Virus genome (UHGV): UHGV-0251712
From: a virus
Reading direction: 5' to 3' (one strand)
Length of the DNA: 16,144 bases
Below are positions 2,537 through 16,144 of this stretch, piece by piece. The stretch's first letter is position 1. The number at the start of each line of letters is the position of its first letter. Below the pieces are notes generated by a model. The model ran no database searches. It saw only the letters and a list, made by a program, of their open reading frames with translations, and was not told the DNA's origin. Position numbers and translations under genes: made by a program.

Positions 2537-2584
2537 ATGATGAATGACGGTAAGCAACAATCTACCTTTTTGTTTCACGATTAC
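2537..2584 (+). pseudogene. sbcB: 5' fragment of sbcB (exonuclease I): first 16 codons only
   Basis: Translation MMNDGKQQSTFLFHDY matches the N-terminus of E. coli exonuclease I as I recall it (continues ETFGTHPALD in the intact protein). Here it continues AQHP and stops. Divergent orientation from dacD matches K-12. Confidence 0.6.
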
Positions 2585-3205
2585 GCGCAACACCCCTGAG
2601 AACCGCCATGAACAAGGGTTTCATGATTTGTGATTTTAGTTTGGTACGCAATTTGGTACACAACACAATTTTCACTTCAGCGGGTAGTCATCAAACTCAC
2701 CATAACGAGCATCGTTAATGATGTATGTGATCACCACAAACATCACATCTGGACTAGTTCCGCTTTCATGCGCAGGTATTTGTTCACGCCTCCCTTTCTG
2801 CAAATCATAAAGATGAGATTTTGGGGTTTTGGGATATCTTTTATCCGCAGTTCTCTATCCATTATGCAAACCAGTAATGAACCATCACCGTGTGATAGTG
2901 AGGCATCTGCCACGATAAGCGCAGAGAAATGATGCAGTGGTGGGCGGACTGGATTGATGAGAAGGTGGAGTGAACCACCTTAACCACTATCGAAGAGCAC
3001 AAAGCCTTGCAATCCAGTACAAAACTTTGTTTGTCTCATCAACTACCGCAAGTATCGATCGATGGAGCCTTGGATGATAGAATAAATTCGTAGCACTTTT
3101 TTTTAAAGTATCATCTCGCTCATGGTTACGTGATAGAAAAAGGACAAAATAATCTTAAATTTAAAAGCATATAAATCATACAAATAAAATTGTGGTGGGT
3201 GCGTA

Positions 3206-4204
3206 ATGTCTGATATTCGACAAAATAGAATAGAGTTAAATGAAGTGCATATAGCTCGCTCCATGGCTATATTTCTAGTTGTTTTACTTCATTCTTCAGG
3301 TGCTTTTTTTATGCAGTTTGGAGATCATTGGTGGATTGTTAATTTATACAGTTCTTTTTCAAGGCAGTGTATAGGTCTTTTTTTTCTTATCACTGGATAC
3401 CTATTTTATGAAAAAAACATAAACCCAACAGCACACCTAAAAAAAGGAGTGTCGAGATTGATAATACCATTCATATTTTGGTGGGTGGTATATTATATCT
3501 ACAATACAGAGATTAACAACAAATCATATAATTCTATATTTCAACCAAGTGAGGTACACCTTTGGTTTATGTATGCATATATTTGTATATATATGTTTTT
3601 ACCAATAATTTGCAACTCATTAAAACACATACCAACATATTACATTTTAATTATTGTAAGCATGCTTTTTTACTCAAATTCCATTGTCCCTGTAGTTGAT
3701 AAAACGATAATGAAGGTAACATGGTTTGATGTAAAACTAGTGTCTGAAAATGGGATATATATTCTTATTGGGGCAATAATAAGGAGATATAACGATAAAA
3801 TAAAAAAATGCAATGCAGTGATACCATTGGTGATTATTGTTATGTCGTGCCTGTTAACATCAATGGCATCTAGTTGGTGGTCTGAAATAACAGGCAGGCC
3901 TGAGCAGTTTTTCTTTAAAAATACATCTCCACTTGTATTAATATGTGTTATTTCTTCATTTACATTATGCATGTCATACTCAAAAATAATTAGCAAAAGA
4001 TTAATGAATTTATTTACATCAATATCAAATGTTTCATTTGGTATATACTTCGTCCATTTCTTTTTTGTTAGAGAAATTAGACTCGGGTATAATCAAGAAA
4101 ACGCATATTTCATGATACCATTGCTAACAATCATTTATTTTTTAATGTCATATTGCATATCAATAATTCTAAGCAAGATCCCTTTGCTTAGAAAAGTAAT
4201 ATAA
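3206..4204 (+). CDS. Acyltransferase family 3 integral membrane protein, probable phage-encoded O-antigen O-acetyltransferase (Oac-like)
   Basis: 332 aa, highly hydrophobic with many predicted transmembrane segments. N-terminal pattern R-x-E-L-N...A-R-S-M-A-I-F-L-V-V-L-L-H resembles the acyltransferase-3 signature. Strongly AT-rich relative to neighbours. Convergent with and abutting the tailspike gene, as in Sf6-like phages. Confidence 0.7.
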   Translation: MSDIRQNRIELNEVHIARSMAIFLVVLLHSSGAFFMQFGDHWWIVNLYSSFSRQCIGLFFLITGYLFYEKNINPTAHLKKGVSRLIIPFIFWWVVYYIYNTEINNKSYNSIFQPSEVHLWFMYAYICIYMFLPIICNSLKHIPTYYILIIVSMLFYSNSIVPVVDKTIMKVTWFDVKLVSENGIYILIGAIIRRYNDKIKKCNAVIPLVIIVMSCLLTSMASSWWSEITGRPEQFFFKNTSPLVLICVISSFTLCMSYSKIISKRLMNLFTSISNVSFGIYFVHFFFVREIRLGYNQENAYFMIPLLTIIYFLMSYCISIILSKIPLLRKVI

Positions 4205-6451
4205 TTATGGATTGTTAACCTTCCATCTTTTATCATAGTAATGCAAATATCCCTGAGACGTTAGTGTCATATGGACAATCGCTTGGGATATTTGCGCGTT
4301 CTGAAAATTAACTCTAATAAATACTTGAGTGCCAATTGTTATTTTTGATACAGATATCCCGTCAAGAGTCTTGTCTCCTTGTATTTTATTAACCCAAACA
4401 CCTGACGAAGACAAGGTTGCCTGATCCTTTCCGCTTATACTAAATATAATTTTACCTCCTGTTGCCAGTGAGGTGTTTACTCCATTTTGAGATATTGGAA
4501 TTATTGTAATTTCACCAGCAATGAAAACACCATTTTTGTATTTAGATACCTCACCTTGTTCACAAATTAAAATATCAATACATCTACCCCATGGTACTAG
4601 GATTGTTGCATTTTCAGTTTTTACTTGTGGATATACAGCTGAAACACCTGCAGATTCGAAATTTTTTGCTGATAAAACAACTCCGTCAGATCCATTTCTA
4701 AATCCCATTCCTGTATGATCACCGTATGTCCTTCCATGAGAGATGAATCCTCTTACATACTCTTCGGATACTGCGCTACCAGTGGTTTCCTTCTGAAAGA
4801 TAAATGTTTCACCAAAAGAAAAACCACGACATTGGTATTGGCTCTGATAATTTTCTGAGTTCTTAAAAAAGGAAATGCCTTTATATGCTGTTACATAGCC
4901 AGATCTAAATTGAACGGAAACAGGGGTTGTTTGTTCATCTGGAGGTAACTCCACAAAATGTGTAACATTTTGGCTGTTTGATTCCTGTAACCATACAGAA
5001 ACACCATCTATAATCATGGTTGAAAATCTACTGTTTATTTCTAACTCAGAAAAATCAAGAACATGATCACCTGTAACACCCTCAACTCCAAACCCATCAA
5101 TACTTAAAGACCTGAACTGATAGAATTTATGCGGTAACTCACAACCATCAGCTGCAATATTCATTGCGCTAGTGTACATTAATGGGTAAGGACTTATAAT
5201 TGGTTCATATGTTTCTCTATCTATTGCAGCCCCCCAAAGATACCCAACATTACAATGTCTTGCCCAGTTGGAAGAGAATGTAGTAGATGTGCCAGCCAAA
5301 CCGAAACCATAGATACAATCATATGCTTGGTTGTTTGTAACATTACTGACAAAGCATGATAAGGGAAGTGCAAATTTATAATGTAGAAATATGTTATTTT
5401 TAATATCATATTCACTACCCCCGCCAAAGGTTTGTGTTTGACCAGAAATGGCCAATGGGCTACCTGAATATTCATCGTCAGCGTTGCGAAAACACATATT
5501 CTTTACTTTAAGATTGTGCCCCCAACTTCCCATAACAAAACCACCACTTCCTGATGTATAAACAATACTTTTTTGTGGATTAATCCCATATAGATTTAGA
5601 CTAATCCCTTCCCATCTAAACTGGCTAATGTCAATTTGAGTGTTACCAATATATATAGGCTGGTCTATGAAAACAGGAAGTTTAGTTAGATAAGCTTTAT
5701 TAAGTGCTAATCCATCATTTGTTACACCTGTTAAATCAACGCCCCCCATGCTTGGCGCTCTAGGATACCCTGTGGCCTGAATAGTACTCCAGTCAATATA
5801 TGGAGCATCCATCCACGCTCCAAACATACGTGGTGTTACGTACCCCTTACCTTGAAGATCACGTTTCCAGCGTTTACCACCCACAGTGACAATGACCATG
5901 CCGTTATCATCTGCAGAAGTAGAATCTGTGAAATCGGCCACAAACAGACCACCACCAGTATCACCTGATACTGTCGGCTTCATGCCTGTAGTGTGGAAGT
6001 CGACGAAAATCTTTTGCTGATCTCGCTCAGGCTCAATTGTCCTTAACATTGCTATATCAGGGCATGTCCCGATGTATTTAAGACCGTCTTCCCCTGATAG
6101 AGATACTTTAAGCTGATCAGGATCATATTTAAGAACATTCGGAAAATAGAACTGCTGTGCACCATATGCATCATAAACAGCCATAGAATGGCCTTGCACA
6201 GTTACGAACTTGGCAATCTGTCCGTTATATACCGGATATCCAGCAGCGTTAATGATGATTGGTTGCGAAACAGGAACGCGAGAACCGTCTTCATTCTCCA
6301 CATAAACCTGAATCTGGTTTTCAGGATTTACCGGGTCAGTGTCAATTTTACCGATATAAATTTTGCCATTGGCTACGGCTTTAAAAGAACGAGCCATAGT
6401 GAAGAGTTGCGAAGGCATGCTTACCACAACATTTGCGGTGATATCTGACAT
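4205..6451 (-). CDS. P22-like tailspike protein (gene 9 homologue) with conserved head-binding N-terminal domain and divergent receptor-binding domain
   Basis: From the internal Met, [43 protein letters not shown]...VLKYDPDQ aligns with the P22 tailspike N-terminal domain ([43 protein letters not shown]). A GGAG ribosome-binding site sits 7 nt upstream of the ATG at 6449-6451. The ORF-track start at 6499 is probably an upstream extension. Confidence 0.85.
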
Positions 6452-6572
6452 TTCATTGCTCCAGACGAATGATATGATGCAACCATGATGTGATTGCATA
6501 CCGAAATGGTACTATTGAGTATTTATCCAGTAGGTTACGATGCCATTCCACCCAACTGGTGAGGCATCAAGG

Positions 6573-6833
6573 ATGTACAGCAAATACGACGAGGCGCAGT
6601 TTCACTTGAGACTTCCGCATGAACTCCACGCGAAAATTAAGCAGCGTGCGAAGATGAATAACAGGTCGCTGAACTCAGAGATAATTGCAGCGATTGAAGA
6701 ATCATTGGCTAAACAAAGCTCTGCATCTGTTTACATTGACGATGCAGAGCGTATGGCAGAACAACAATCTGATATGGTTAAGAAAATTGTCTTTGATACG
6801 CTCAAGGAGCTATATAAAAAAGACAGCAGCTAA
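6573..6833 (+). CDS. mnt: Mnt-like ribbon-helix-helix repressor (P22 immI region)
   Basis: QFHLRLPHELHAKIKQRAKMNNRSLNSEII...DDAERMAEQQSDMVKKIVFDTLKELYKK aligns with P22 Mnt (HFNFRMPMEVREKLKFRAEANGRSMNSELL...NDAERLADEQSELVKKMVFDTLKDLYKK). AAGGA ribosome-binding site before the ATG at 6573. Divergent from the tailspike gene. Confidence 0.75.
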   Translation: MYSKYDEAQFHLRLPHELHAKIKQRAKMNNRSLNSEIIAAIEESLAKQSSASVYIDDAERMAEQQSDMVKKIVFDTLKELYKKDSS

Positions 6834-6922: not shown

Positions 6923-9316
6923 CTATTCTGACAACGCATCAGACTTGGCACCCTGAGTAAGGGCGTTAATGGCCTTTTGCGCCTGCTGCATGGCTTTCTC
7001 AAACGCTGTTGATCCGCGTGGGGTGTTTGCCATTCGGAGCATTGCATTTCTGAATGGCTCGCTCTCATAGGCGCGAGTAAGAAGTCCGTAGCTTACTGCT
7101 GCGCCAGTTGTCGCCGGGTTCATTGCCGTCCCATATCCGATAATGAACGGGATGGTTTGCTGCCCTGTTGGTGTTGTTACTGCCGCTTTTGCTGCCTGCT
7201 GAGTGGACTGAAGGTAGTTTTTCAATCCTTTCAGATAAGCGGCTTCCTGACCTTTAAATGTGATGCCAGTCTGGTTTTGCAGGATGTTAAGCTGTCGAAG
7301 GAACTGGTCAGGTGAACCACCTGATTTCTCTATCGCCTTTCCAATAATGCCATTGCGCATTTGCGCTCTTCCAACGCGACCAACTGAGTTATACAGCGTC
7401 TTAATTTCCGATTTGTTCTTGCTGAATAGCATGTTGTTGACAACTTCCGGCGTCAGGTCGCCTTTCATGAGAACATTCTTCAGCCTGGTATTCTTTAGTT
7501 TCGCCGCTTCGTCAGCGTATACGGCATTGGCCTGCTGATATTTACGGAGAGTATCGTTGCCAAGATTCTGACCAATGGCACCATTGATATCGTCTGTCAT
7601 CGCCTTGTAAACGCGCTGAATGGCAGCATCGGAACGGTTTGGTAACACTGGTCGTTCACCCTTCACGTCCATTCTGAACTGGCTGCGCAGATCGCTTAAT
7701 TGCTTCAAATCCAGATTTACCGGACCATCAGGACCAGCATTGCGAACAAGCTCATCACGATATGACTGAAGTTTTGAAATAGTCTCGTTATCAGCAACCT
7801 TACCAAGCTTCTGCAGGTTAGATATTTCTGTATCAATCTGCTGAATTGCTCGCGCAGGCTGAATGTTTACTCCAGCCATAGCATTCTGAACCTGCTCCAG
7901 TCGATTACCGGCGGCACGACGAATTCCTGATGTTTTCGCTTTAAGGCTGTCAATAACAACAGATGGATCATACTCACCGAATTTATCAGCAAATCTCTGC
8001 ACCAACTGGCTTCTCGCTTCCTGTTGCGTTGCTCTCATTCCGCTTGTGCCAGCCAGAGGAATATTTTCTGCTGTAGTCTGCGCCATTTTTCCGACGCGGG
8101 AAGTAGGCTGTAACAGGTCTGTGGTGTGCAGAGGAACTCCTTCACGCTCTGCAAATCTGATAGCTTGCTGTGCTTCTGGCGCGATAGCACCACGAACGCC
8201 ACGATAAGCAGCACCTAATCCACGTCCGGCAGCGTTAATAGCACCGCCAGCAAGTACACCAACGCCTAAATCGGTGGCGAGTGCTTCCGCATCATCTTTC
8301 GCACTATTTGCAGCAAGTGATCCAACTGCGTTTTCTGCTAGAAGGCGAGTTGCCCCCTGAGCAATTCGACCAGCAAGTGTTGGTGCCTGTGCTGCCGCTC
8401 TCTCAACGCCAGCAGGAGTGAGGTAAGGCAATGCTTCAGCAAATACCCTTCCCTCTGTCGTTTGTGGAGTCAGCGCGCCTTGCCGAAGGCCAAAGTCCCG
8501 CTCTAATCCCTGCGTTGTTACTCGTGGTGCTGGTTGATATGTACCATCGCCAATGCCGAGTTTACCGCCAGCCCAAGCCGCCGCGCTTGTTACAGCATCA
8601 GTGAGTTCAGCAGGTATGTTCGCTACGTTGATTCCTGCCTGTAGTATGCCGCGCCCGGTTTCAGCAAGTCCATTACCAAGGTCAGACATTATTCCGCCTT
8701 GCTGCTGAACAGGTTTCGGTGCGACAGAACTTACGGGTTGAGGTGGCTGCTGACTGGCTGCCTGCTGCTCAATCTGAGCAAATGGATTATTTGGGTCTGA
8801 CTGCACACCTGATGCCGATACTTGTTCGGATGACTGTACTTCCAGTTGTGCAAACGGGTTGTTAGGGTCTTGCTGAGGATGTACCTTTGCAGAGGTGGCG
8901 CGCTGTTCGACTGTTGAGTCTGTCACCGGGTCACCCGCCCATTGAGCAAAGCGATCATCAACGTAACCGCGGCCTTCAGGTCCTGGCGTATATTCACCAC
9001 GCTTTGCCTTCATAACGTTGCCGGGACCGTCGTGATAAGCCTGAAGAGCGTCACGCCAGTTACCAAACTGCTGGTACATCTTTGCCAGATAGCGCGCGCC
9101 AGCGTCAGCCTGATATTCGGGGTTTTGCATTTGCTCATCGGTATAACCCATATCACGCCATGTCCCAGGCATGACCTGAGTCAATCCTACAGCCCCGGCG
9201 GAGCTTACTGCGGCAGGGTTGTAAGAAGACTCCTTGGCACCCAGTGCAGTCATCAACCCTTCTGGCACACCGTAACGTGCGCCAGCCTGCTCTAACAAAT
9301 CACGGTAATTAGCCAT
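6923..9316 (-). CDS. Phage ejection/injection (internal virion) protein with N-terminal lytic transglycosylase-like domain
   Basis: 797 aa. N-terminus (GVPEGLMTALGAKESSYNPAAVSSAGAVGLTQVMPGTW) resembles the SLT-domain catalytic region (E-S...GLMQ pattern). Start ATG immediately follows the stop of the upstream 443-aa gene. Sits between the ejection genes and the mnt/tailspike region, like P22 gene 16. Confidence 0.65.
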   Translation of the reverse strand: MANYRDLLEQAGARYGVPEGLMTALGAKESSYNPAAVSSAGAVGLTQVMPGTWRDMGYTDEQMQNPEYQADAGARYLAKMYQQFGNWRDALQAYHDGPGNVMKAKRGEYTPGPEGRGYVDDRFAQWAGDPVTDSTVEQRATSAKVHPQQDPNNPFAQLEVQSSEQVSASGVQSDPNNPFAQIEQQAASQQPPQPVSSVAPKPVQQQGGIMSDLGNGLAETGRGILQAGINVANIPAELTDAVTSAAAWAGGKLGIGDGTYQPAPRVTTQGLERDFGLRQGALTPQTTEGRVFAEALPYLTPAGVERAAAQAPTLAGRIAQGATRLLAENAVGSLAANSAKDDAEALATDLGVGVLAGGAINAAGRGLGAAYRGVRGAIAPEAQQAIRFAEREGVPLHTTDLLQPTSRVGKMAQTTAENIPLAGTSGMRATQQEARSQLVQRFADKFGEYDPSVVIDSLKAKTSGIRRAAGNRLEQVQNAMAGVNIQPARAIQQIDTEISNLQKLGKVADNETISKLQSYRDELVRNAGPDGPVNLDLKQLSDLRSQFRMDVKGERPVLPNRSDAAIQRVYKAMTDDINGAIGQNLGNDTLRKYQQANAVYADEAAKLKNTRLKNVLMKGDLTPEVVNNMLFSKNKSEIKTLYNSVGRVGRAQMRNGIIGKAIEKSGGSPDQFLRQLNILQNQTGITFKGQEAAYLKGLKNYLQSTQQAAKAAVTTPTGQQTIPFIIGYGTAMNPATTGAAVSYGLLTRAYESEPFRNAMLRMANTPRGSTAFEKAMQQAQKAINALTQGAKSDALSE

Positions 9317-10648
9317 TTACTGCCCCAAAGATGGAAGATATCCGTAGCGATTAATGAAGTCGATTGACAGCTCGGGGTGCTGCTTCAGGTAATCTATAGA
9401 AGCCTGAGGCGCTTCCACTCGCTTGATACCGTTTTGCTGAACGTACTTACCAACCGCCTCATTACGCTTCTGGTTGAGCGTGTTCAGGATGACGCCAGCG
9501 TTGCGACGAAAGGACTCCTCGCTCTGCGAGTTCTGCAGCGAACCAACAGCCTGGTCGAGCTTTTTGCCCTCGGCATCAGAAAGTGCGCCCATGCCTCGCA
9601 TGGCCTGAACCGCTGTCAGGTATGCTTGGGATTTAAAGGTATCAAGTCGTGCCTGAGTGTCTGCAGCCTGTGAGCCTGGAACGTTGGGGATTACTCCACG
9701 TAAGCCTGTAATGCTCTTAAGTGAAGGAGAACTAACGATATCGTTCAGAGTGAACATGCTGGTTGTGAGGGTGTTGATGCCGTCTTTGTAGCCATCATTT
9801 AGCGCTTGCTGCTTCTGCTGCAACTGCTGGTTGTTGGCTGCTATGCGGCTCTGTATTTCCTGGCGCTTCAGGTCGTTAGTTTCTGCTGATAGCATCCGGT
9901 CAAGGCGCTTATTTTCGTTGTTAATGCGGTTTGTTTCTGCGTCCAGATTAATGCGCTGCTGACCTAAATTCGCCTGGATATCTTGCCCGCGCATTGTGAT
10001 TGCCTGATTCCGAGCGGCGGTTTGCGAATCCAGATCCTGACCGCGCATGGTAACCTGGCGACCCTGCATTTTATCCTGTAGGTCAAAGTATTTTTCGGGT
10101 CCGAGACTGTTCATCCCCAGGTGATCGACAAATTCGCCGAACTGCCGCGGGTTCTGTTGGTACATCTGAGCGACATCCTGAGGATTAACGCCAACACGAG
10201 CTAACTCACCGGCGTTGTTTTGCAGCCATGATTGCATTGCTTCTGGAGACGATGACGCAAGGCGTGCGCCAGCCGCTAAGGTGCCGATAGAATTACGCTG
10301 ATCTTCATCAATGAATCCCATGCCTTTACGAACGGATTCAATCTGTTCTGGATATTGAGTAGCCAACTGACGCAAAGCACCGCGATCACCAGACGCATAA
10401 GCATTAGCGTATGCCTGCTGAAATTCTTTCTGCCGCTGAGCCTGCTTTTCCTGCTGAAACACCCCCGCAATACCTGAAAGGCCTTGCAAAGCAGTCAGCC
10501 CAACATTGTTAGCGCCTGAACGCTCAATATCATTGTTCTGCCTGATAAGCTGAAGCGTATTGCCGATGTCATTTACGCTCGGAGCGTTTGAGTTGACGCC
10601 GCCGATACCAGCCAACAATCCGCCGTTTGTTCCTTGCCAAGTAGCCAT
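9317..10648 (-). CDS. Phage ejection/DNA-transfer protein (P22 gene 20-like)
   Basis: 443 aa, Q/N/A-rich low-complexity with coiled-coil character; in operon with and immediately upstream of the 797-aa protein; size and context fit P22-like gp20. Family assignment is by context only. Confidence 0.55.
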   Translation of the reverse strand: MATWQGTNGGLLAGIGGVNSNAPSVNDIGNTLQLIRQNNDIERSGANNVGLTALQGLSGIAGVFQQEKQAQRQKEFQQAYANAYASGDRGALRQLATQYPEQIESVRKGMGFIDEDQRNSIGTLAAGARLASSSPEAMQSWLQNNAGELARVGVNPQDVAQMYQQNPRQFGEFVDHLGMNSLGPEKYFDLQDKMQGRQVTMRGQDLDSQTAARNQAITMRGQDIQANLGQQRINLDAETNRINNENKRLDRMLSAETNDLKRQEIQSRIAANNQQLQQKQQALNDGYKDGINTLTTSMFTLNDIVSSPSLKSITGLRGVIPNVPGSQAADTQARLDTFKSQAYLTAVQAMRGMGALSDAEGKKLDQAVGSLQNSQSEESFRRNAGVILNTLNQKRNEAVGKYVQQNGIKRVEAPQASIDYLKQHPELSIDFINRYGYLPSLGQ

Positions 10649-10657
10649 GATTACCCC

Positions 10658-10855
10658 TTAAAACAACGAGCCAAGCAATCCGATACCAGCACCAATGCCA
10701 GCGCCCCAAGGCGTTGATGTTCCCAAAAGGCTGGCAAGACCTGCACCGGCAATCGCACCAGACGTGCCACCGCTAATTGCAGTCTGAAGACTTGATGGTT
10801 TAACCAAAGAGTAGTTGGCTTTGGGGTGACGTGAAGTGCAGCTGCACGACGGCAA
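10658..10855 (-). CDS. Small Gly/Ala-rich ORF, possibly the 3' remnant of an upstream ejection-protein gene (gene 7-like) truncated by a deletion joint
   Basis: 65-aa ORF ending 9 bp before the 443-aa gene. Hydrophobic Gly/Ala-rich C-terminus. Begins at a TTG inside the region occupied on the other strand by the ssb fragment, so its 5' end is unlikely to be native. Confidence 0.3.
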
Positions 10856-11267
10856 CCTGACAATAGCAACGTCAGAACAATGGCGAGATAAAAATACTGG
10901 CGAGCAAAAGGAATTGACTGAATGGCATCGTGTTGCTGTATCCGGGAAACTGGCTGAGGTCGTGGGGCAGTATGTGAAAAAAGGTGATCAGATTTATTTC
11001 GAGGGAATGCTGAGAACCAGAAAGTGGAAAGACCAGTCAGGGCAAGACCGTTACACAACCGAGGTTCATGTCGGAATTAATGGCGTGATGCAAATGCTTG
11101 GCGGCATTGGCGACAGCAAACAACAAGCAGCCAGCAGGCAATCACAGAAGCCACAGCAGCAATCATCACCAGCACAACACAACGAACCTCCGATGGATTT
11201 TGACGACGATATACCCTTTGCACCAGTAACTCTCCCCTTCCCTCGTCACGCTATTCACGCAATTTAA
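10830..11267 (+). pseudogene. ssb: Single-stranded DNA-binding protein gene (ssb), 5'-truncated and with a C-terminal extension beyond the DDDIPF tip
   Basis: Translation [22 protein letters not shown]...[54 protein letters not shown]...[10 protein letters not shown] aligns with E. coli SSB from about residue 30 onward. The N-terminal ~30 residues are absent (in-frame stop at 10827-10829). After DDDIPF there is no stop and the frame continues 15 codons. Confidence 0.75.
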
Positions 11268-11280
11268 TCAGGAGAAAATC

Positions 11281-11577
11281 ATGCCAGCGCCTCAGTATGG
11301 TGCGGATGACCCGCGCCGCTGTTCCGGCAATTCCGTATCGGAGGTGCTGGATAAATTCAGAAAAAACTACGACCGGATAATGTCGCTACCGCAGGAAACA
11401 AAAGAGGAAAAGGAATTTCGCCACTGTATATGGCTTGCAGAGAAAGAAGAACGAGAGCGAATTTACCAGACATCAATCCGACCATTCCGCAAAGCCACAT
11501 ATACCCACTTCCCTGAATATATCGACCCGCGCCTGCGTAATTACCGCTCACGCTATGGCTCTATCAGTAATGACTGA
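11281..11577 (+). CDS. Hypothetical prophage early-region protein
   Basis: 98-aa ORF with AGGAG ribosome-binding site 7 nt upstream; tightly packed in the early operon after ssb. No family recognised. Confidence 0.45.
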
Positions 11578-11587
11578 GGAATTTACC

Positions 11588-11755
11588 ATGAGAGGACTTG
11601 CATACAATCCCGGCATTCTTCCGGCAGAAATGATTATTCGCCAACGCGTAAAGCCAATGCCATCGAGAGAGGAATTGCTTAAGAGAAATTCTTTTCCGTC
11701 AGTAAATCAAAACAAATATCTGAATGCGATGTGGCGTAAAGGAGGCAAGCAGTGA
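11588..11755 (+). CDS. Hypothetical small protein (55 aa)
   Basis: ATG at 11588 preceded by GAGG, follows the previous gene closely, and its stop overlaps the next start. The longer ORF-track version from 11435 overlaps the preceding gene and is less likely. Confidence 0.3.
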
Positions 11756-12051
11756 GTGTATGTCTTATTGATAAACGTCGACGTGGGCAACAAATACCAT
11801 CTGTTGGAATGCCGAATCACACATGGTTTTGCGTACTTGATATCGATGGTATGGATGCGTTGGTTGACACTCGTCATTACTGCGATACCGCAACAGCTAC
11901 TCCGGCGAAAGCAAAGAAAATGGCTGCTCTGATAGAAAACTGGACTCCACCTGATGGTTGGTGCAATGGGAATGATCGAGATTGGCACGAAAAAATGAAG
12001 GGCTATATCTGCGATTTTTTACGTAAATGCAACGGATTCAGGGTGATGTGA
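11752..12051 (+). CDS. Hypothetical prophage early-region protein (GTG start)
   Basis: 99-aa ORF; GTG start 6 nt after a GGAGG ribosome-binding site; overlaps the upstream stop. No family recognised. Confidence 0.4.
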
Positions 12052-12052
12052 C

Positions 12053-12742
12053 ATGAGCAAGATTGCCTATCAGGCACTGCGTGAAAAGGCAGAGAAAGCA
12101 ACGTGTGGTGTGTGGTCGCTCGAATATGGAGAGGGCCGATTTGATGGTGATGATGCGCTAATTCATCGTGAAGTTGCTGGATATATTCCCATTTGCAGAA
12201 TTGAAGGAGCGCATCCTGAAAGCGGTTTCGATGAAGATTTCCAAATGGAACAGCAGGCCAATGCTGAATTCATCGCAGCAGCCAGTCCAGCTACCGTGCT
12301 GGCACTACTGGATGAACGGGAAAGAAACCAGCAGTACATCAAACGCCGCGACCAGGAGAACGAAGATATTGCGCTAACGGTAGGGAAGCTGCGTGTTGAT
12401 CTGGAAGCCGCAGAGAAGCGCAACGCAAAATTACAAAGCGAGAATGCATACATCCGCAACAGGTACAAAGAACTGGACCTATTAATCGGGAAAAACATTC
12501 TGGTCATGCAGGCTGCCATTATCGAATGGCAATCTACTGGCGACGCTAAAAGCGGACTGGCATGGATTTATAACACACTGTTTGGCCCAGGCGAATTGCC
12601 GGACGAATCTGAGAAAGATGCTCAGGCCTACTTTAATCGCAAAAATGAACCGATTGACGAAAAGCTTATGGAGCTTCACAAGTGGTTTTGGGAACAAAGT
12701 GAAGCCGAGCGTGTCGCTGGCATTCGCATCAAAGGAGAGTGA
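12053..12742 (+). CDS. Ead/Ea22-like family protein (lambdoid early-left accessory protein)
   Basis: 229 aa with a central coiled-coil-like segment; N-terminus MSKIAYQALREKAEK... resembles proteins annotated Ead/Ea22-like in enterobacterial prophages (recollection, not searched); position in the early-left region. Confidence 0.5.
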   Translation: MSKIAYQALREKAEKATCGVWSLEYGEGRFDGDDALIHREVAGYIPICRIEGAHPESGFDEDFQMEQQANAEFIAAASPATVLALLDERERNQQYIKRRDQENEDIALTVGKLRVDLEAAEKRNAKLQSENAYIRNRYKELDLLIGKNILVMQAAIIEWQSTGDAKSGLAWIYNTLFGPGELPDESEKDAQAYFNRKNEPIDEKLMELHKWFWEQSEAERVAGIRIKGE

Positions 12743-12743
12743 T

Positions 12744-12941
12744 ATGGATAAAAACACCACTGCTTACTGGAATCTGTCACTTGATACCGAATGCCCAAAA
12801 TGCGGTCACAATTTCGATCTGCTTTGTGACGCTGATTTCTGGGAGTTTTCTGGAGCTAAACAGGCATGTGAAGAAATAAAAGGTTACAAAACATGCTGTC
12901 CGGAATGTAACCATGAATTTAAAACAGATTTCATATATTGA
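12744..12941 (+). CDS. Small zinc-ribbon protein
   Basis: 65 aa with CPKCG...CCPEC (two CxxC pairs). ATG overlaps the Ead stop (TGATATG) with an AAAGGAGAG ribosome-binding site upstream. Confidence 0.5.
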   Translation: MDKNTTAYWNLSLDTECPKCGHNFDLLCDADFWEFSGAKQACEEIKGYKTCCPECNHEFKTDFIY

Positions 12942-12951
12942 GGCATAACAA

Positions 12952-13398
12952 ATGACCACTATTACCAAAGAACGTATTGAATTGTTCATTAAAAATCCGC
13001 TTGAAAACGGGCTTACTCGTGGCGAACAAATGGAACTGGCACGAATTGCACTGGCATCACTGGAACGCGAACTGATTCGCCACGAGCATGCCAAATGGTC
13101 TGACTCCACATTTGGCTGCGTTGGCCCCATTGGTCCACTGAAACACCTCTCAAAAGAGACACTGGAAGCCGCAGCCGAACCAGACGATCTTAGCGAGTGG
13201 GCTGATATGCAGTTTCTGTTGTGGGATGCACAGCGCCGTGCTGGCATCAGCGATGCTGAAATTACCGCTGCTATGGAAGATAAATTGAAGATCAACATGG
13301 AGCGCCAGTGGCCTGAGCCAAAAGATGGTGAGCCTCGCTTGCACATTAAAGAACTCGGCAACTCTCCGGTAATTCCGGATGGTTCGGATGATGGTTAA
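12952..13398 (+). CDS. MazG-like nucleotide pyrophosphohydrolase-like protein (DUF550-like)
   Basis: 148 aa; segments HLSKETLEAAAE and DLSEWADMQFLLWDAQRRAG resemble the paired E-rich helices of MazG/HisE-type all-alpha NTP pyrophosphohydrolases. Assignment by motif resemblance only. Confidence 0.45.
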   Translation: MTTITKERIELFIKNPLENGLTRGEQMELARIALASLERELIRHEHAKWSDSTFGCVGPIGPLKHLSKETLEAAAEPDDLSEWADMQFLLWDAQRRAGISDAEITAAMEDKLKINMERQWPEPKDGEPRLHIKELGNSPVIPDGSDDG

Positions 13399-13433
13399 CC
13401 ATTTTTGATGTAAAAACATCCTTCTCTGAGGGC

Positions 13434-13462
13434 TTGCTCCTCAATAAGTTTGGTTTTATAAT
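13434..13462 (+). promoter_or_regulatory. Candidate sigma70 promoter for the NYN gene (TTGCTC - 17 bp - TATAAT)
   Basis: Perfect -10 hexamer TATAAT at 13457-13462 with TTGCTC 17 bp upstream, in the 149-bp gap before the NYN ORF. Sequence-only prediction. Confidence 0.3.
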
Positions 13463-13547
13463 TACGCGCAATGAAGGTGGGCGGTTCGCTACTATACAAG
13501 AGGGGTGTACCCCGCGAACTTAACCCACCACCACTTTCCTCTCTACT

Positions 13548-14195
13548 ATGAATTGCAAATCAATGACCAGAAAATATGCCATCATGATCGATGCTGGTTT
13601 TTTGCGTGCAAAATTAGGCACAAAAGATAAGCCAATCGATGCGGAAGTAATCAAAGTATTTGTAGAAAAACTAACAAAAAGGCATGAACTAGAAGGCATG
13701 ATTTTGCACCGTGTTTATTATTACGATGCAGAGCCGCTTACCGGAATACAGACGCATCCGATTAGTGGAGAGAAAATTGACTTCTCTGAAACAGAAGTTT
13801 CTAAAAGAAATAAAGCCATGCTTGATGAGTTGAAAAGAACTCCTTTTTTTGCAGTAAGACTTGGAGAGACAAACTTTCGAGGATGGAAGGTTGACCCATG
13901 GGCATTAAAGAGCAGTGACTCTAAAACTTCTTCCATTAATGCCTACAATGTTAAGCCTAATGTTCAGCAGAAAGGCGTTGATATGCGTATTGCGTTAGAT
14001 ATGTCATCAATGTCATTAAAAAAACAGGCAGATATATATGCTTTGGTGACTGGTGATTCAGATTTTGTTCCAATTATAAAATTTGCTAGGAAAGAAGGCC
14101 GACAGATTTTTCTATACACACTGGGACATAGTGTCAAGCAGACGATGTATGAACATTCCGATTTGTTAGTGCCAGATACCATGGATAAATTGTGA
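13548..14195 (+). CDS. NYN-domain (PIN-like, LabA/limkain-b1-type) predicted ribonuclease
   Basis: 215 aa with NYN hallmarks: N-terminal YAIMIDAGF, central KGVDMRIALDM, and C-terminal ALVTGDSDFVPIIKFARKEGRQIF (the typical GDxDF...G block). AT-rich relative to flanking phage genes. True start may be the ATG at 13563. Confidence 0.65.
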   Translation: MNCKSMTRKYAIMIDAGFLRAKLGTKDKPIDAEVIKVFVEKLTKRHELEGMILHRVYYYDAEPLTGIQTHPISGEKIDFSETEVSKRNKAMLDELKRTPFFAVRLGETNFRGWKVDPWALKSSDSKTSSINAYNVKPNVQQKGVDMRIALDMSSMSLKKQADIYALVTGDSDFVPIIKFARKEGRQIFLYTLGHSVKQTMYEHSDLLVPDTMDKL

Positions 14196-14374
14196 TTGGA
14201 GCTAGGAATAGGTTAGCCGCGCCTTAATAGATGATCCATTCTGGCAGAAAAAGAACACAAAGAAGTAGCCTAAGTGCCCCCAACTGCATTTACACCCAGG
14301 CCCTCATTGCGGGTCTTTCTATTTACAGAGATGGCTGAGCAGAACGCCAAGAACTGACAACCTGAACGAATACG

Positions 14375-14400
14375 AACCCGCCTAGTGCGGGTTTTCTTTT
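14375..14400 (+). terminator. Rho-independent terminator (stem aacccgc/gcgggtt plus T-run)
   Basis: 7-bp GC-rich stem with 5-nt loop followed by TTCTTTT. Confidence 0.65.
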
Positions 14401-14406
14401 ATCTGA

Positions 14407-14430
14407 ACTCGCTACGGCGAGTTTTGTTTT
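14407..14430 (+). terminator. Second tandem rho-independent terminator (stem actcgc/gcgagt plus T-run)
   Basis: 6-bp stem with 4-nt loop followed by TTTTGTTTT. Confidence 0.55.
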
Positions 14431-14442
14431 ATGGAGATGATT

Positions 14443-14742
14443 ATGGCCTGTTCAACATTCAACCATTTAACGTTACAGAAATACCAGCCAGACCCTGAAG
14501 ATTTATGCTCACTGTGTGGCGGAAATCATGGTAAAGCCGCCATGATCGAATGTAAGGACAAAATCCACATTTGCCTTAATTGCGTTGATGTCCTCGTTGA
14601 TATCAAAAATGAGAGAGAAGATAAAAAGCGTAGCGAGGCTATTCGCGCATTAGATTCATGGATGCGAGATGGGTATAGTGCTGCGCAAATTTATGACTTC
14701 GCAATATCAAAAGGCGAAATACCAGGAGTGCGCATCGAATAA
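14443..14742 (+). CDS. Small zinc-ribbon protein bounded by terminators
   Basis: CSLCGG...C...CLNC cysteine pattern. Start chosen at the ATG at 14443 because GGAG lies 6 nt upstream; the ORF track starts at 14431, which abuts the terminator T-run. Confidence 0.45.
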   Translation: MACSTFNHLTLQKYQPDPEDLCSLCGGNHGKAAMIECKDKIHICLNCVDVLVDIKNEREDKKRSEAIRALDSWMRDGYSAAQIYDFAISKGEIPGVRIE

Positions 14743-14822: not shown

Positions 14823-14927
14823 GATGACCGATACCAGCCTGATTCCTGAGAAAGAAGTGATGAACAAGCTCGGTGTTTCATCACGTCAGACAATCTGGAA
14901 CTATACCAAACGGCACGGATGGATATA
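14823..14927 (+). pseudogene. AlpA/excisionase-family helix-turn-helix gene, 3'-truncated (34 codons)
   Basis: MTDTSLIPEKEVMNKLGVSSRQTIWNYTKRHG fits the AlpA/Xis-type HTH pattern (L-x-x-x-E-V...G-x-S-R-x-T-I-x). Intact members run about 60-70 aa. Here the frame ends WI-stop inside the 36-bp inverted-repeat copy that starts at 14917. Confidence 0.5.
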
Positions 14928-14952
14928 GGTTACTGGCGAACACATGATTTCA
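14917..14952. repeat. Left copy of perfect 36-bp inverted repeat bracketing the integrase 3' segment
   Basis: ggatggatataggttactggcgaacacatgatttca is exactly the reverse complement of 15154-15189, with mismatches immediately outside both ends. Confidence 0.9.
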
Positions 14953-15140
14953 GAAGAACGCTTGTTACACGTCTGTCCGAGATGAATGTCGAGCCTCATG
15001 TTACTGAGCGAATGCTCGGTCATGAACTTGGCGGGATAATGTCCGTATACAATAAACACGATTGGATAGAGGCTCAGCGCAAAGCGTATGAGCTTCACGC
15101 TGATAAATTGTTCTGGCACATCAGGAGCATTTCTGATTAA
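14919..15140 (+). pseudogene. Detached C-terminal segment of a tyrosine integrase, inverted relative to the rest of the gene
   Basis: MDIGYWRTHDFRRTLVTRLSEMNVEPHVTERMLGHELGGIMSVYNKHDWIEAQRKAYELHADKLFW carries the H-x-x-R and catalytic Tyr region. Its first 11 residues duplicate the last residues of the minus-strand integrase ORF. Confidence 0.8.
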
Positions 15141-15148
15141 CGCCACCG

Positions 15149-16144
15149 TTAAGTGAAATCATGTGTTCGCCAGTAACCTATATCCATCCCTCCCCTTATT
15201 CTATTTACGAATCGGTTGGCTGCAGCGATGCTGATCGGTTTGTTTATGTCTTCTCCAGGGAAAAGAACATCATTGTACGTTGTCATGGCCTTATCGAGGA
15301 AAGGCTTAATTTGTTCGAAGATTGGACGGCGGATAACATTACCCATCTTGCTATGCTCTTTCGGTACGGTCCATACGTTGTCCAGCAGGTCAAATTCTGT
15401 CTTTGTTGCCAGCCTAAGCTCTGAGAGCCTCGCCCCCCACAGCATAAGCATCTGATGAAGGAGCTTATTTGACGTAGACGCACGGCTTCTTTCAATAGCA
15501 AGCCAAATCTTAGCCAGTTCGTGATACGACAGTACCCGATCCCCTACCTCAGCGCGGGAGCCGAAGTCCCTTGGCTGGATGCTCATAATTGCGCAACTAT
15601 CTATCAACTGACGCCGCATGCACCAACTAATTGCTGATCTTAGTTGACTTAGCACCTGCCTTGCTCGGCGTGGATTATCTTTTTCTTCTTCGGTAAGCAG
15701 GTCAACCCATTGCTTAACCGTGATAGAAGATGCCGGACGATTAGGAAAGGCGTCATGCATGCGCTTCATAACCGTTGATCGGTAAAGTGCCTGGGTCTTT
15801 TCTCTGAGAGTTGTAGAGACGTAGTTGTCGAACCAGTAGTCGAGACACTGGGCGACCGTCATGGAGTTCTCCACCTTCTCTTCAAAATAAGTGCGTGGAT
15901 CCGTTCCTGAGAAATAGAGCTTTCGCAAGTCAGCAGTGATCTGTCTGGCATCCTTCAAAGACAGGGATGGGTATCGACCAAGCCCAAGTCGATTAGGCTT
16001 GCCATGCCAGCGATAGCGGTACTGGAACTGGATGACCCCCTTCGGTGAAATTCGTACGCTGAGGCCATCGGCATCAGCCACTTCTTGTGGGCCCGAATAT
16101 GGTTTACCATAAATAGTACGCAGTTTTGTGTCGCTTATAGCCAT
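15149..16144 (-). CDS. P4-type tyrosine integrase, N-terminal 330 codons; truncated before the catalytic Tyr
   Basis: N-terminus has the arm-binding pattern of P4-family integrases (GLSVRISPKGVIQFQYRYRWHGKPNRLGLGRYPSLSLKDAR). ORF ends ...GGMDIGYWRTHDFT-stop at the right copy of the 36-bp repeat. Start codon is the last 3 bases of the window. Confidence 0.8.
   Translation of the reverse strand: MAISDTKLRTIYGKPYSGPQEVADADGLSVRISPKGVIQFQYRYRWHGKPNRLGLGRYPSLSLKDARQITADLRKLYFSGTDPRTYFEEKVENSMTVAQCLDYWFDNYVSTTLREKTQALYRSTVMKRMHDAFPNRPASSITVKQWVDLLTEEEKDNPRRARQVLSQLRSAISWCMRRQLIDSCAIMSIQPRDFGSRAEVGDRVLSYHELAKIWLAIERSRASTSNKLLHQMLMLWGARLSELRLATKTEFDLLDNVWTVPKEHSKMGNVIRRPIFEQIKPFLDKAMTTYNDVLFPGEDINKPISIAAANRFVNRIRGGMDIGYWRTHDFT
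15154..15189. repeat. Right copy of perfect 36-bp inverted repeat
   Basis: Reverse complement identical to 14917-14952. Confidence 0.9.

Follow-up and report, generated by a model that had tools for sequence, protein, structure and literature searches.

A two-joint scar between gene 7 and ssb as the probable trace of a ~24-kb loss from a P22-like prophage at the Escherichia coli sbcB site

The 16,144-nucleotide stretch analyzed here (the window), from the virus genome UHGV-0251712, comprises a piece of the Escherichia coli chromosome, sbmC–dacD, followed by a P22-like prophage (Lederbergvirus, of the Sf101/HK620 type) at the sbcB attachment (att) site. Within it, positions 10650–11270, where the ejection genes meet a truncated gene (ssb) for a protein that binds single-stranded DNA, are very probably (roughly 93%) the deletion scar of a defective, or cryptic, prophage that has lost about 24 kb. 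This reading rests on a three-part homology with sharp edges, on the placement of a short relic in phage HK620, on the gene order of intact relatives, on the sizes of the missing segments, and on the recurrence of the same scar in other assemblies. A first-pass annotation, drawn from the letters alone, had described an abrupt joint left by a large internal deletion. The breakpoint is real, but it consists of two joints, 51 bp apart, rather than one. The elements of the scar are as follows.

10658..10802, minus strand: gene 7 remnant, the last 48 codons and stop of a 230-codon ejection gene, with 182 codons lost
10802/10803: joint 1, a single shared A, sequence GATGGTTTAACCAAAGAGTAGTTGGC
10803..10853, plus strand: relic of the nutL–N spacer, 51 bp (59 bp, 10802–10860, counting shared bases)
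10836..11267, plus strand: chimeric 143-codon open reading frame (ORF), in which a GTG inside the spacer relic reads in frame into ssb codon 32
10854..10860: joint 2, 7 bp of microhomology (AACCTGA) common to the spacer and ssb codons 32–34, sequence GCTGCACGACGGCAACCTGACAATAGC
10854..11267, plus strand: putative ssb pseudogene, codons 32–168 and stop, with the native start, the ribosome-binding site and the first 31 codons lost

The joints were placed by a base-by-base comparison of register among the window, gene 7 of phage IME10, the HK620 spacer, and the ssb genes of phage HK75 and E. coli GDSC2239PM. This comparison, an alignment to P22-like genomes and phage ssb genes of the kind the first-pass annotation had proposed, maps the breakpoints to 10802/10803 and 10854–10860. 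The two joints enclose a 51-bp piece of third origin, and every base from 10658 to 11267 can be assigned to gene 7, to the HK620 spacer or to ssb. The matches of the ejection genes, gene 7 and ssb have BLAST E-values of 1e-19 to 0 and are not chance resemblances.

On the left edge of the scar lies what should be annotated as the tail end of gene 7. It sits in a 65-codon, Gly/Ala-rich ORF on the minus strand (10658–10855), upstream of the gp20 and gp16 genes. The last 48 codons of this ORF equal the C-terminal end of IME10's gene 7 protein (230 aa), and at the DNA level the match to IME10 gene 7 is 99.5% up to base 10802 and nil past it. The remnant also matches phrog_598 ('DNA ejection') at profile positions 181–232 of 240. 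The layout described earlier, in which the ejection operon (797-aa and 443-aa genes) is preceded by a short Gly/Ala-rich ORF overlapping a plus-strand ssb, is confirmed at the positions given; the overlap with the plus-strand ORF 10836–11267 amounts to 20 nt.

The piece between the joints corresponds to the stretch between nutL and gene N. Bases 10802–10860 are 100% identical to HK620 7695–7753 and to HK630, and 96–98% identical to the corresponding stretch of some 20 further lambdoid phages and some 650 E. coli chromosomes. In HK620 this interval opens on the final base annotated as nutL and closes 49 bp short of the start codon of N. In CUS-3 the relic falls within a 'bsq5; boundary sequence' between cI and N, and in an Stx1a phage its sequence again lies between cI and N, after a recognizable boxA/boxB and before an arginine-rich N ORF. 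The relic itself contains neither pL nor nutL, nor the ribosome-binding site of N. A scan for promoters and terminators around the scar yielded nothing beyond chance, plus-strand promoter-like sites included, and Rfam and tRNA scans returned no family and no tRNA.

To the right of the spacer, ssb begins in mid-domain. From 10854 onward DNA identity is 98.4% with HK75 ssb and as high as 99.1% with the ssb genes of E. coli prophages, and the HK75 match opens at position 1501 of the HK75 locus, 93 nt (31 codons) into the 507-nt gene. An earlier estimate that the first ~30 codons were missing can therefore be made exact: relative to HK75, epsilon34 and E. coli SSB, codons 1–31 are absent, and with them the native start, which leaves the N-terminal oligonucleotide-binding (OB) fold incomplete. 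All 168-aa homologues start 31 codons earlier, and in intact relatives the start codon of the full-length ssb directly follows an Erf/Rad52-type recombinase gene. Pfam SSB (PF00436) matches only at profile positions 27–99 of 104 (phrog_44 is matched as well), and the full-length homologue aligns with solved SSB structures from its residue 1 onward. Because about the first quarter of the OB fold and the gene's own start are gone, the fragment is best regarded as a pseudogene. Gene callers nevertheless report a 143-aa 'SSB' on every related contig, because the GTG at 10836, just downstream of a TGA stop at 10827–10829, happens to be in frame with ssb. In annotation this 'SSB' should be described as a truncated pseudogene joined to six codons of non-coding spacer.

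The gene order of intact relatives indicates what has been lost. After gene 7 these run 14, 26, 10, 4, coat, scaffold, portal, terminase, lysis, Q, nin and replication, and their early-left region runs cI – pL – nutL – N – ... – recombinase – full-length ssb – abc2. E. coli YZ22PE165 carries an intact prophage in this canonical order at the same chromosomal site. One of the two missing stretches (deletion A) runs from codon 182/183 of gene 7 to the base after the nutL boxB and includes pL/OL and nutL. The gene 7 region and the spacer (27779–27837) occur together in HF4s, an intact Lederbergvirus of 39,390 bp, in whose coordinates deletion A measures 21,525 bp, from the gene 7 breakpoint at 9973 backwards round the genome to 27837. 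In HF4s this interval holds genes 14, 26, 10 and 4, coat, scaffold, portal, both terminase subunits and lysis, and further Q, nin, replication, cII, cro and cI. The other (deletion B) runs from 49 bp upstream of gene N to ssb codon 31. It measures about 2,747 bp in the coordinates of mEpX2, a phage with both the spacer and this ssb type (spacer to ssb codon 32), and in relatives the interval holds N, superinfection-exclusion genes, cIII/kil-type genes and the Erf/Rad52-type recombinase. Added to the 13.8 kb that survive, 21.5 and 2.7 kb give about 38 kb, matching the genomes of HK620 (38.3 kb), Sf101 (38.7 kb) and HF4s (39.4 kb), with the proviso that the deletion sizes are approximate because lambdoid phages are mosaic and the parent had to be pieced together from references.

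The ends of the element place it at sbcB.

298–2572: host flank, sbmC–dacD and the intergenic stretch that reaches the 5′ side of sbcB, 99% identical to many E. coli chromosomes
2573..2585: 13-bp att core, TTTCACGATTACG, where prophage and host meet on the dacD side

The attP core CGTAATCGTGAAA has been given for Sf101 and phage 2851, both of which integrate at sbcB (PMC4159516), and TTTCACGATTACG is its reverse complement. An 11-bp repeat from the first att search, TTTGGTACACA, was dropped in favor of the published 13-bp core. The core is present in a single copy in the window; its right-hand counterpart falls outside. A contig carrying the same element (L007) has it at both ends, at 1738 and 15554, the second copy lying inside the 5′ end of sbcB, and it is there that the 13.8 kb between the two 13-bp cores was measured. 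The element has a tyrosine integrase, and the att cores flank it at dacD/sbcB. Ejection genes 7, 20 and 16 follow in order, then a tailspike with the P22 head-binding domain, as judged by phrog_598 for the gene 7 remnant and by Pfam Inj_translocase, SLT/Phage_P22_gp16 and Head_binding for the others. DNA identity to IME10, Sf101 and Sf6 is 96–99.8% here, and gene order and orientation are those of the Sf101 circular map opened at attP. No head, packaging, lysis, replication or immunity module lies between the att cores, and all are present in intact relatives (L006, L018, L021). The earlier statement that head, portal, terminase, lysis, replication and immunity genes are missing holds in the same way, and the proposal that the prophage lost a large internal part and retained its tail, ejection and early accessory genes is borne out by the relatives' gene order and by the 13.8-kb size. 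The element is a defective member of the P22-like, sbcB-integrating phage group.

The scar is not confined to the window. The chimeric 143-aa product is indexed in 28 blocks of a public assembly collection and on at least 24 contigs, and all ten contigs that were fetched carry window positions 10760–10900 base for base. Among the ten are the 107-kb contig of NCBI GCA_024502405.1, metagenome assemblies from ENA for which different assemblers had been used, and Logan assemblies of several runs. Long contigs (107, 50 and 36 kb) show the context dacD – remnant – sbcB. Because the junction is identical across samples, sources and assemblers, it is taken to be biological and inherited, and an artefact is dismissed. 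Across the prophage the copies are 99.9–100% identical to the window, which points to a single recent clone of carriers, and the intactness of the large genes therefore says nothing about selection. The exact junction would be a possible lineage marker for this E. coli clone.

Outside these carriers the arrangement was not encountered. Neither the gene 7–ssb adjacency, nor either joint, nor an ssb starting at this position occurs in 50,697 phage records. Neither joint, alone or with the other, occurs in 5,426 complete E. coli genomes, and exact-pattern scans for either joint in IMG/VR (2.9 million contigs), JGI metagenomes and GTDB species representatives were likewise empty. The intact phage that would have told against a deletion, one with this adjacency or with an ssb naturally beginning here, was thus not found among the phage records, the IMG/VR contigs or the E. 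coli genomes. A lone 20-mer match in an Actinophytocola metagenome-assembled genome was set aside as a chance match. One contig (L015; ENA ERZ27271721 k141_60990), equivalent to window 9812–11756 and beyond, has the identical scar and the identical truncated ssb; from window 11294 (in abc2) onward it shows 20 differences and then different ea genes. It may reflect post-deletion recombination with another lambdoid phage, or it may be a metagenomic chimera.

Comparison with known systems sets the element among both intact and decayed phages. With Sf101 and 2851 it shares the 13-bp att core, the dacD–sbcB integration site, and the type and orientation of the integrase. The gene order is shared too: one side reads acyltransferase – tailspike – (mnt) – gp16 – gp20 – gp7, the other abc2 – ea genes – xis – int. 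Sf101, however, is a complete 38.7-kb phage, whereas the remnant lacks ~24 kb of interior and has other alleles of acyltransferase and tailspike. HK620, also a Lederbergvirus, shares the 59-bp stretch at 100% identity and the same virion gene architecture, but it is intact and its SSB is unrelated, with the C-terminus NDYPPF (PMC5928155). The ssb–abc2 module finds its counterpart in HK75, mEp235, mEpX2 and epsilon34, with DNA identities from 98% (HK75) to 90% (epsilon34) running from ssb codon 32 through abc2 and DUF2737, and the 15 residues past DDDIPF are identical; these phages differ from the remnant in having a full-length ssb (168 aa) immediately behind the Erf/Rad52-type recombinase gene.

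Among decayed elements, DLP12, Rac, Qin and e14 are likewise integrated lambdoid prophages rendered harmless by internal deletions while keeping scattered intact genes. They differ in being old, widely fixed and partly riddled with insertion sequences (IS), whereas the present remnant occurs as near-identical copies with IS-free joints. Such classical E. coli cryptic prophages persist and can donate DNA to incoming phages (PMC3945230), an exchange at which the contig with the same scar and different sequence downstream of abc2 hints. A closer parallel is found in strain PSJ-16 (L022; NZ_AP027632.1 1827386–1842231), where a prophage at the same dacD/sbcB locus has kept its ends and lost its middle. 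Its layout, acyltransferase – tailspike – gp16 – gp20 without N-terminus – hypothetical gene – xis – int, marks an independent event, with a breakpoint inside gene 20 and the whole ssb–abc2–ea region gone. This second case shows that decay of this kind recurs, and the same variability upstream of sbcB has been described (PMC4159516).

As to mechanism, both joints would have arisen by illegitimate, homology-poor recombination, through either two successive deletions or one replication template-switching event that copied 51–59 bp of spacer. There is no extended homology between the joined partners at either joint. Joint 2, with its 7 shared bp, has the signature of microhomology-mediated illegitimate recombination, and the single bp at joint 1 is no more than chance. 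A single complex event leading from gene 7 to the spacer (~51–59 bp) to ssb would resemble microhomology-mediated break-induced replication or fork stalling and template switching (MMBIR/FoSTeS-like template switching or break repair). It is a variant of the deletion reading to which we give somewhat less than even odds. In its favor, the two joints always come together. A joint-2-only intermediate would also encode the chimeric ORF, and yet all ten of the contigs found through that ORF carry joint 1 as well; nor does any complete E. coli genome or phage record hold either joint alone. The insert is moreover short, derived from the deleted interval and in its original orientation, with microhomology at joint 2, and a short insert of this pattern is typical of template-switch 'filler' DNA. 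On the other hand, with the carriers forming one clone, intermediates could be extinct or unsampled, and joint 1 has just 1 bp in common. Two ordinary deletions would give the same structure, and each alone would leave a viable lysogen because pL was lost together with cI. By either route the scar would have formed after integration, because the infecting particle cannot have been a phage that had no N, replication or head genes.

That the adjacency of gene 7, spacer and ssb is instead a chimeric metagenome join is hardly credible, even though the window's own contig invites the suspicion. Bases 1–297 have no match in the 5,426 complete E. coli genomes, and E. coli homology begins abruptly at 298. 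Bases 3–151 are 89–93% identical to TraG ATPase genes of conjugative transposons of Bacteroidales (Parabacteroides, Bacteroides, Phocaeicola), and G+C is 59% in 1–297 against 48% next door; at 297/298 the assembly of a gut metagenome has most likely produced a chimera. A second anomaly lies near the other end.

14917..15153: 237-bp inverted segment holding the 3′ end of int, inverted relative to three otherwise identical contigs (L007–L009)

This fold-back, absent from the other contigs, is flanked by inverted-repeat arms (14909–14952 and 15154–15197) and contains the last 62 int codons, including the region of the catalytic Tyr, now part of a plus-strand 73-codon ORF. Beside it 62 bp of the xis-like gene are missing, and the inversion comes with a 36-bp inverted duplication and a 4-bp overlap at its left joint. 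The resulting 331-aa integrase product is not on record anywhere. The segment could be either a real fold-back rearrangement, locking the remnant in place, or an assembly artefact. Both anomalies suggest an imperfect metagenome assembly that leaves the scar unaffected, for the junction is identical in ten contigs from different samples, sources and assemblers, some of them with normal dacD and sbcB flanks.

An exchange of homologous modules at a lambdoid boundary sequence, or a deletion mediated by an IS, has some points in its favor. The relic lies inside the CUS-3 boundary sequence, which is highly conserved in many lambdoid phages, and sbcB prophages are often IS-disrupted (PMC4159516). They are nonetheless highly unlikely, as the spacer shares at most 1 bp with gene 7 and at most 7 bp with ssb at the joints, and no IS sequence, inverted repeat or target duplication is found at the scar, where 10658–11267 is fully accounted for. 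The joints, with their 7-bp microhomology and 51-bp filler, would rather document illegitimate recombination than IS action. Just as improbable as an artefact is a natural functional arrangement, such as a phage satellite or streamlined element with an SSB variant that starts here. The large genes are all intact, as are int, xis and both att cores in contigs L007–L009, and a similar two-ended remnant exists in PSJ-16. Yet gene 7 breaks off within the gene, leaving 48 of 230 codons, and ssb within its domain; the PSJ-16 breakpoint differs, as random decay predicts; and no viral contig has the joints. The element also lacks replication, repressor, packaging and capsid-redirecting genes: ORF scans with PHROGs and Pfam and the element's gene tables yielded no replication initiator, master repressor, or packaging or capsid redirector such as satellites resembling phage-inducible chromosomal islands (PICI) or P4 would have.

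Several points nevertheless weigh against the deletion reading as set out here, in addition to the approximate sizes. The parent would be a mosaic of references, and no single sequenced phage holds all three segments. No one-joint intermediate was found in the complete E. coli genomes or the phage records, so that the data fit one event as well as two, in either order. The window contig alone, given its signs of misassembly at 1–297 and 14917–15153, could not have established the joint, which the independent contigs do. The intact large genes fit a recent event, yet they are also compatible with selection to keep them. Finally, the remnant's transcriptional silence is a deduction from its lack of pL, nutL, N, Q and pR′.

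If the deletion reading is correct, the 13.8-kb remnant should be unable to replicate, lyse the cell or build heads. The promoters and antiterminators of both surviving operons (pL/N and pR′/Q) are lost, and for that reason tailspike, gp16, gp20, the truncated ssb and abc2 are most likely silent passengers. Only genes with promoters of their own, namely acyltransferase, mnt, and int/xis where intact, are plausibly active. The remnant would then be a base-resolved example of a temperate phage disarmed, with all lethal and autonomous functions gone (kil, lysis, replication, N, Q, and cI along with pL) and the conversion gene spared. It is an ordinary instance of a well-known process that would not surprise a phage biologist, and its main value lies in annotation. 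An alternative fate would be domestication, suggested by the two independent lineages that keep both ends of P22-like prophages at the sbcB locus, with acyltransferase, tailspike and ejection genes at one and accessory genes close to int at the other. Selection could have acted on O-antigen modification and on the anti-RecBCD and nuclease accessory genes, and the chimeric ORF might even be expressed as an OB-defective decoy. In that event the chimeric protein (SSB residues 32–168) would display the SSB linker and acidic motif to SSB-binding proteins. We consider this a long shot.

The other end of ssb has a different story. The first-pass annotation observed that the frame runs 15 codons past DDDIPF, normally the extreme C-terminus of an SSB, and counted this among the marks of the deletion. 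The extension is there (11223–11267), but it has no link to the rearrangement, since intact, full-length SSBs carry the same tail: those of HK75 and epsilon34 end in the same 15 residues, so that DDDIPF is not terminal in intact family members either. A 30-residue tail probe retrieves 96 phage records with at least 80% coverage. Lambdoid and P22-like phages have the tail on full-length SSBs, and phages of Acinetobacter, Klebsiella and Vibrio have it on SSB-like proteins; three distant proteins that were fetched and translated (Acinetobacter ABPH49, Klebsiella KpS11 and Vibrio 1.038.O) have an ending of the same type. The consensus is roughly AP[VI]xL.......H[AC]I. The tail is thus the natural C-terminus of a phage SSB subfamily. 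Such a tail would mask or bury the terminal Phe carboxylate bound by host partner proteins. Solved SSB structures align only up to DDDIPF and none includes the 15 residues; a literature search found no paper describing them and turned up only the unrelated HK620 SSB. Between HK75 and epsilon34 (L001 1408–1914 and L019 508–1014), 49 of 168 ssb codons differ, mostly synonymously, and the last 16 codons are identical in DNA, so a comparison for purifying selection is uninformative there. The 3′ end of ssb may be a conserved module boundary shared by recombination. The conserved tail is the one mildly intriguing by-product of the analysis.

The genes retained on either side of the scar are listed below.

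3206..4204, plus strand: acyltransferase, 332 aa (Pfam Acyl_transf_3, E = 5e-34), in the lysogenic-conversion position, as oacB in Sf101
4205..6499, minus strand: tailspike, longest ORF 764 aa (Pfam Head_binding, E = 5e-67)
6540..6833, plus strand: Mnt-like repressor, a remnant of the immI region (Pfam Arc and Repressor_Mnt)
6923..9316, minus strand: gp16-like ejection protein with a lytic transglycosylase domain, 797 aa, intact (Pfam SLT)
9317..10648, minus strand: gp20-like ejection protein, 443 aa, intact (Pfam Inj_translocase, E = 4e-68)
11281..11577, plus strand: abc2 (anti-RecBCD), intact (phrog_656, E = 8e-56)
11588..14742, plus strand: early-left accessory genes (DUF2737, DUF7739, Ead/Ea22, dATP/dGTP pyrophosphohydrolase, NYN nuclease-like, small ORFs)
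about 14824–14920, plus strand: xis-like gene
15149..16144, minus strand: integrase of the Sf101 type (Pfam Arm-DNA-bind_3 and partial Phage_integrase, positions 2–132 of 172)

Phage_P22_gp16 is matched on the identical 797-aa product of related contigs, and Pfam Anti-RecBCD_p2 on their identical abc2 product. The integrase, 331 aa in the window where the inversion shortens it, has 392 aa in L007–L009. Gene callers start the tailspike at 6451, giving 748 aa, the length also called in L007–L012. No more than about 40% of the window is covered by the best matches among E. coli and phages, although neighboring genes are near-identical; the poorly covered parts are 2586–3205 and 3206–6499, the latter holding the acyltransferase and the receptor-binding part of the tailspike, both of which look like uncommon alleles.

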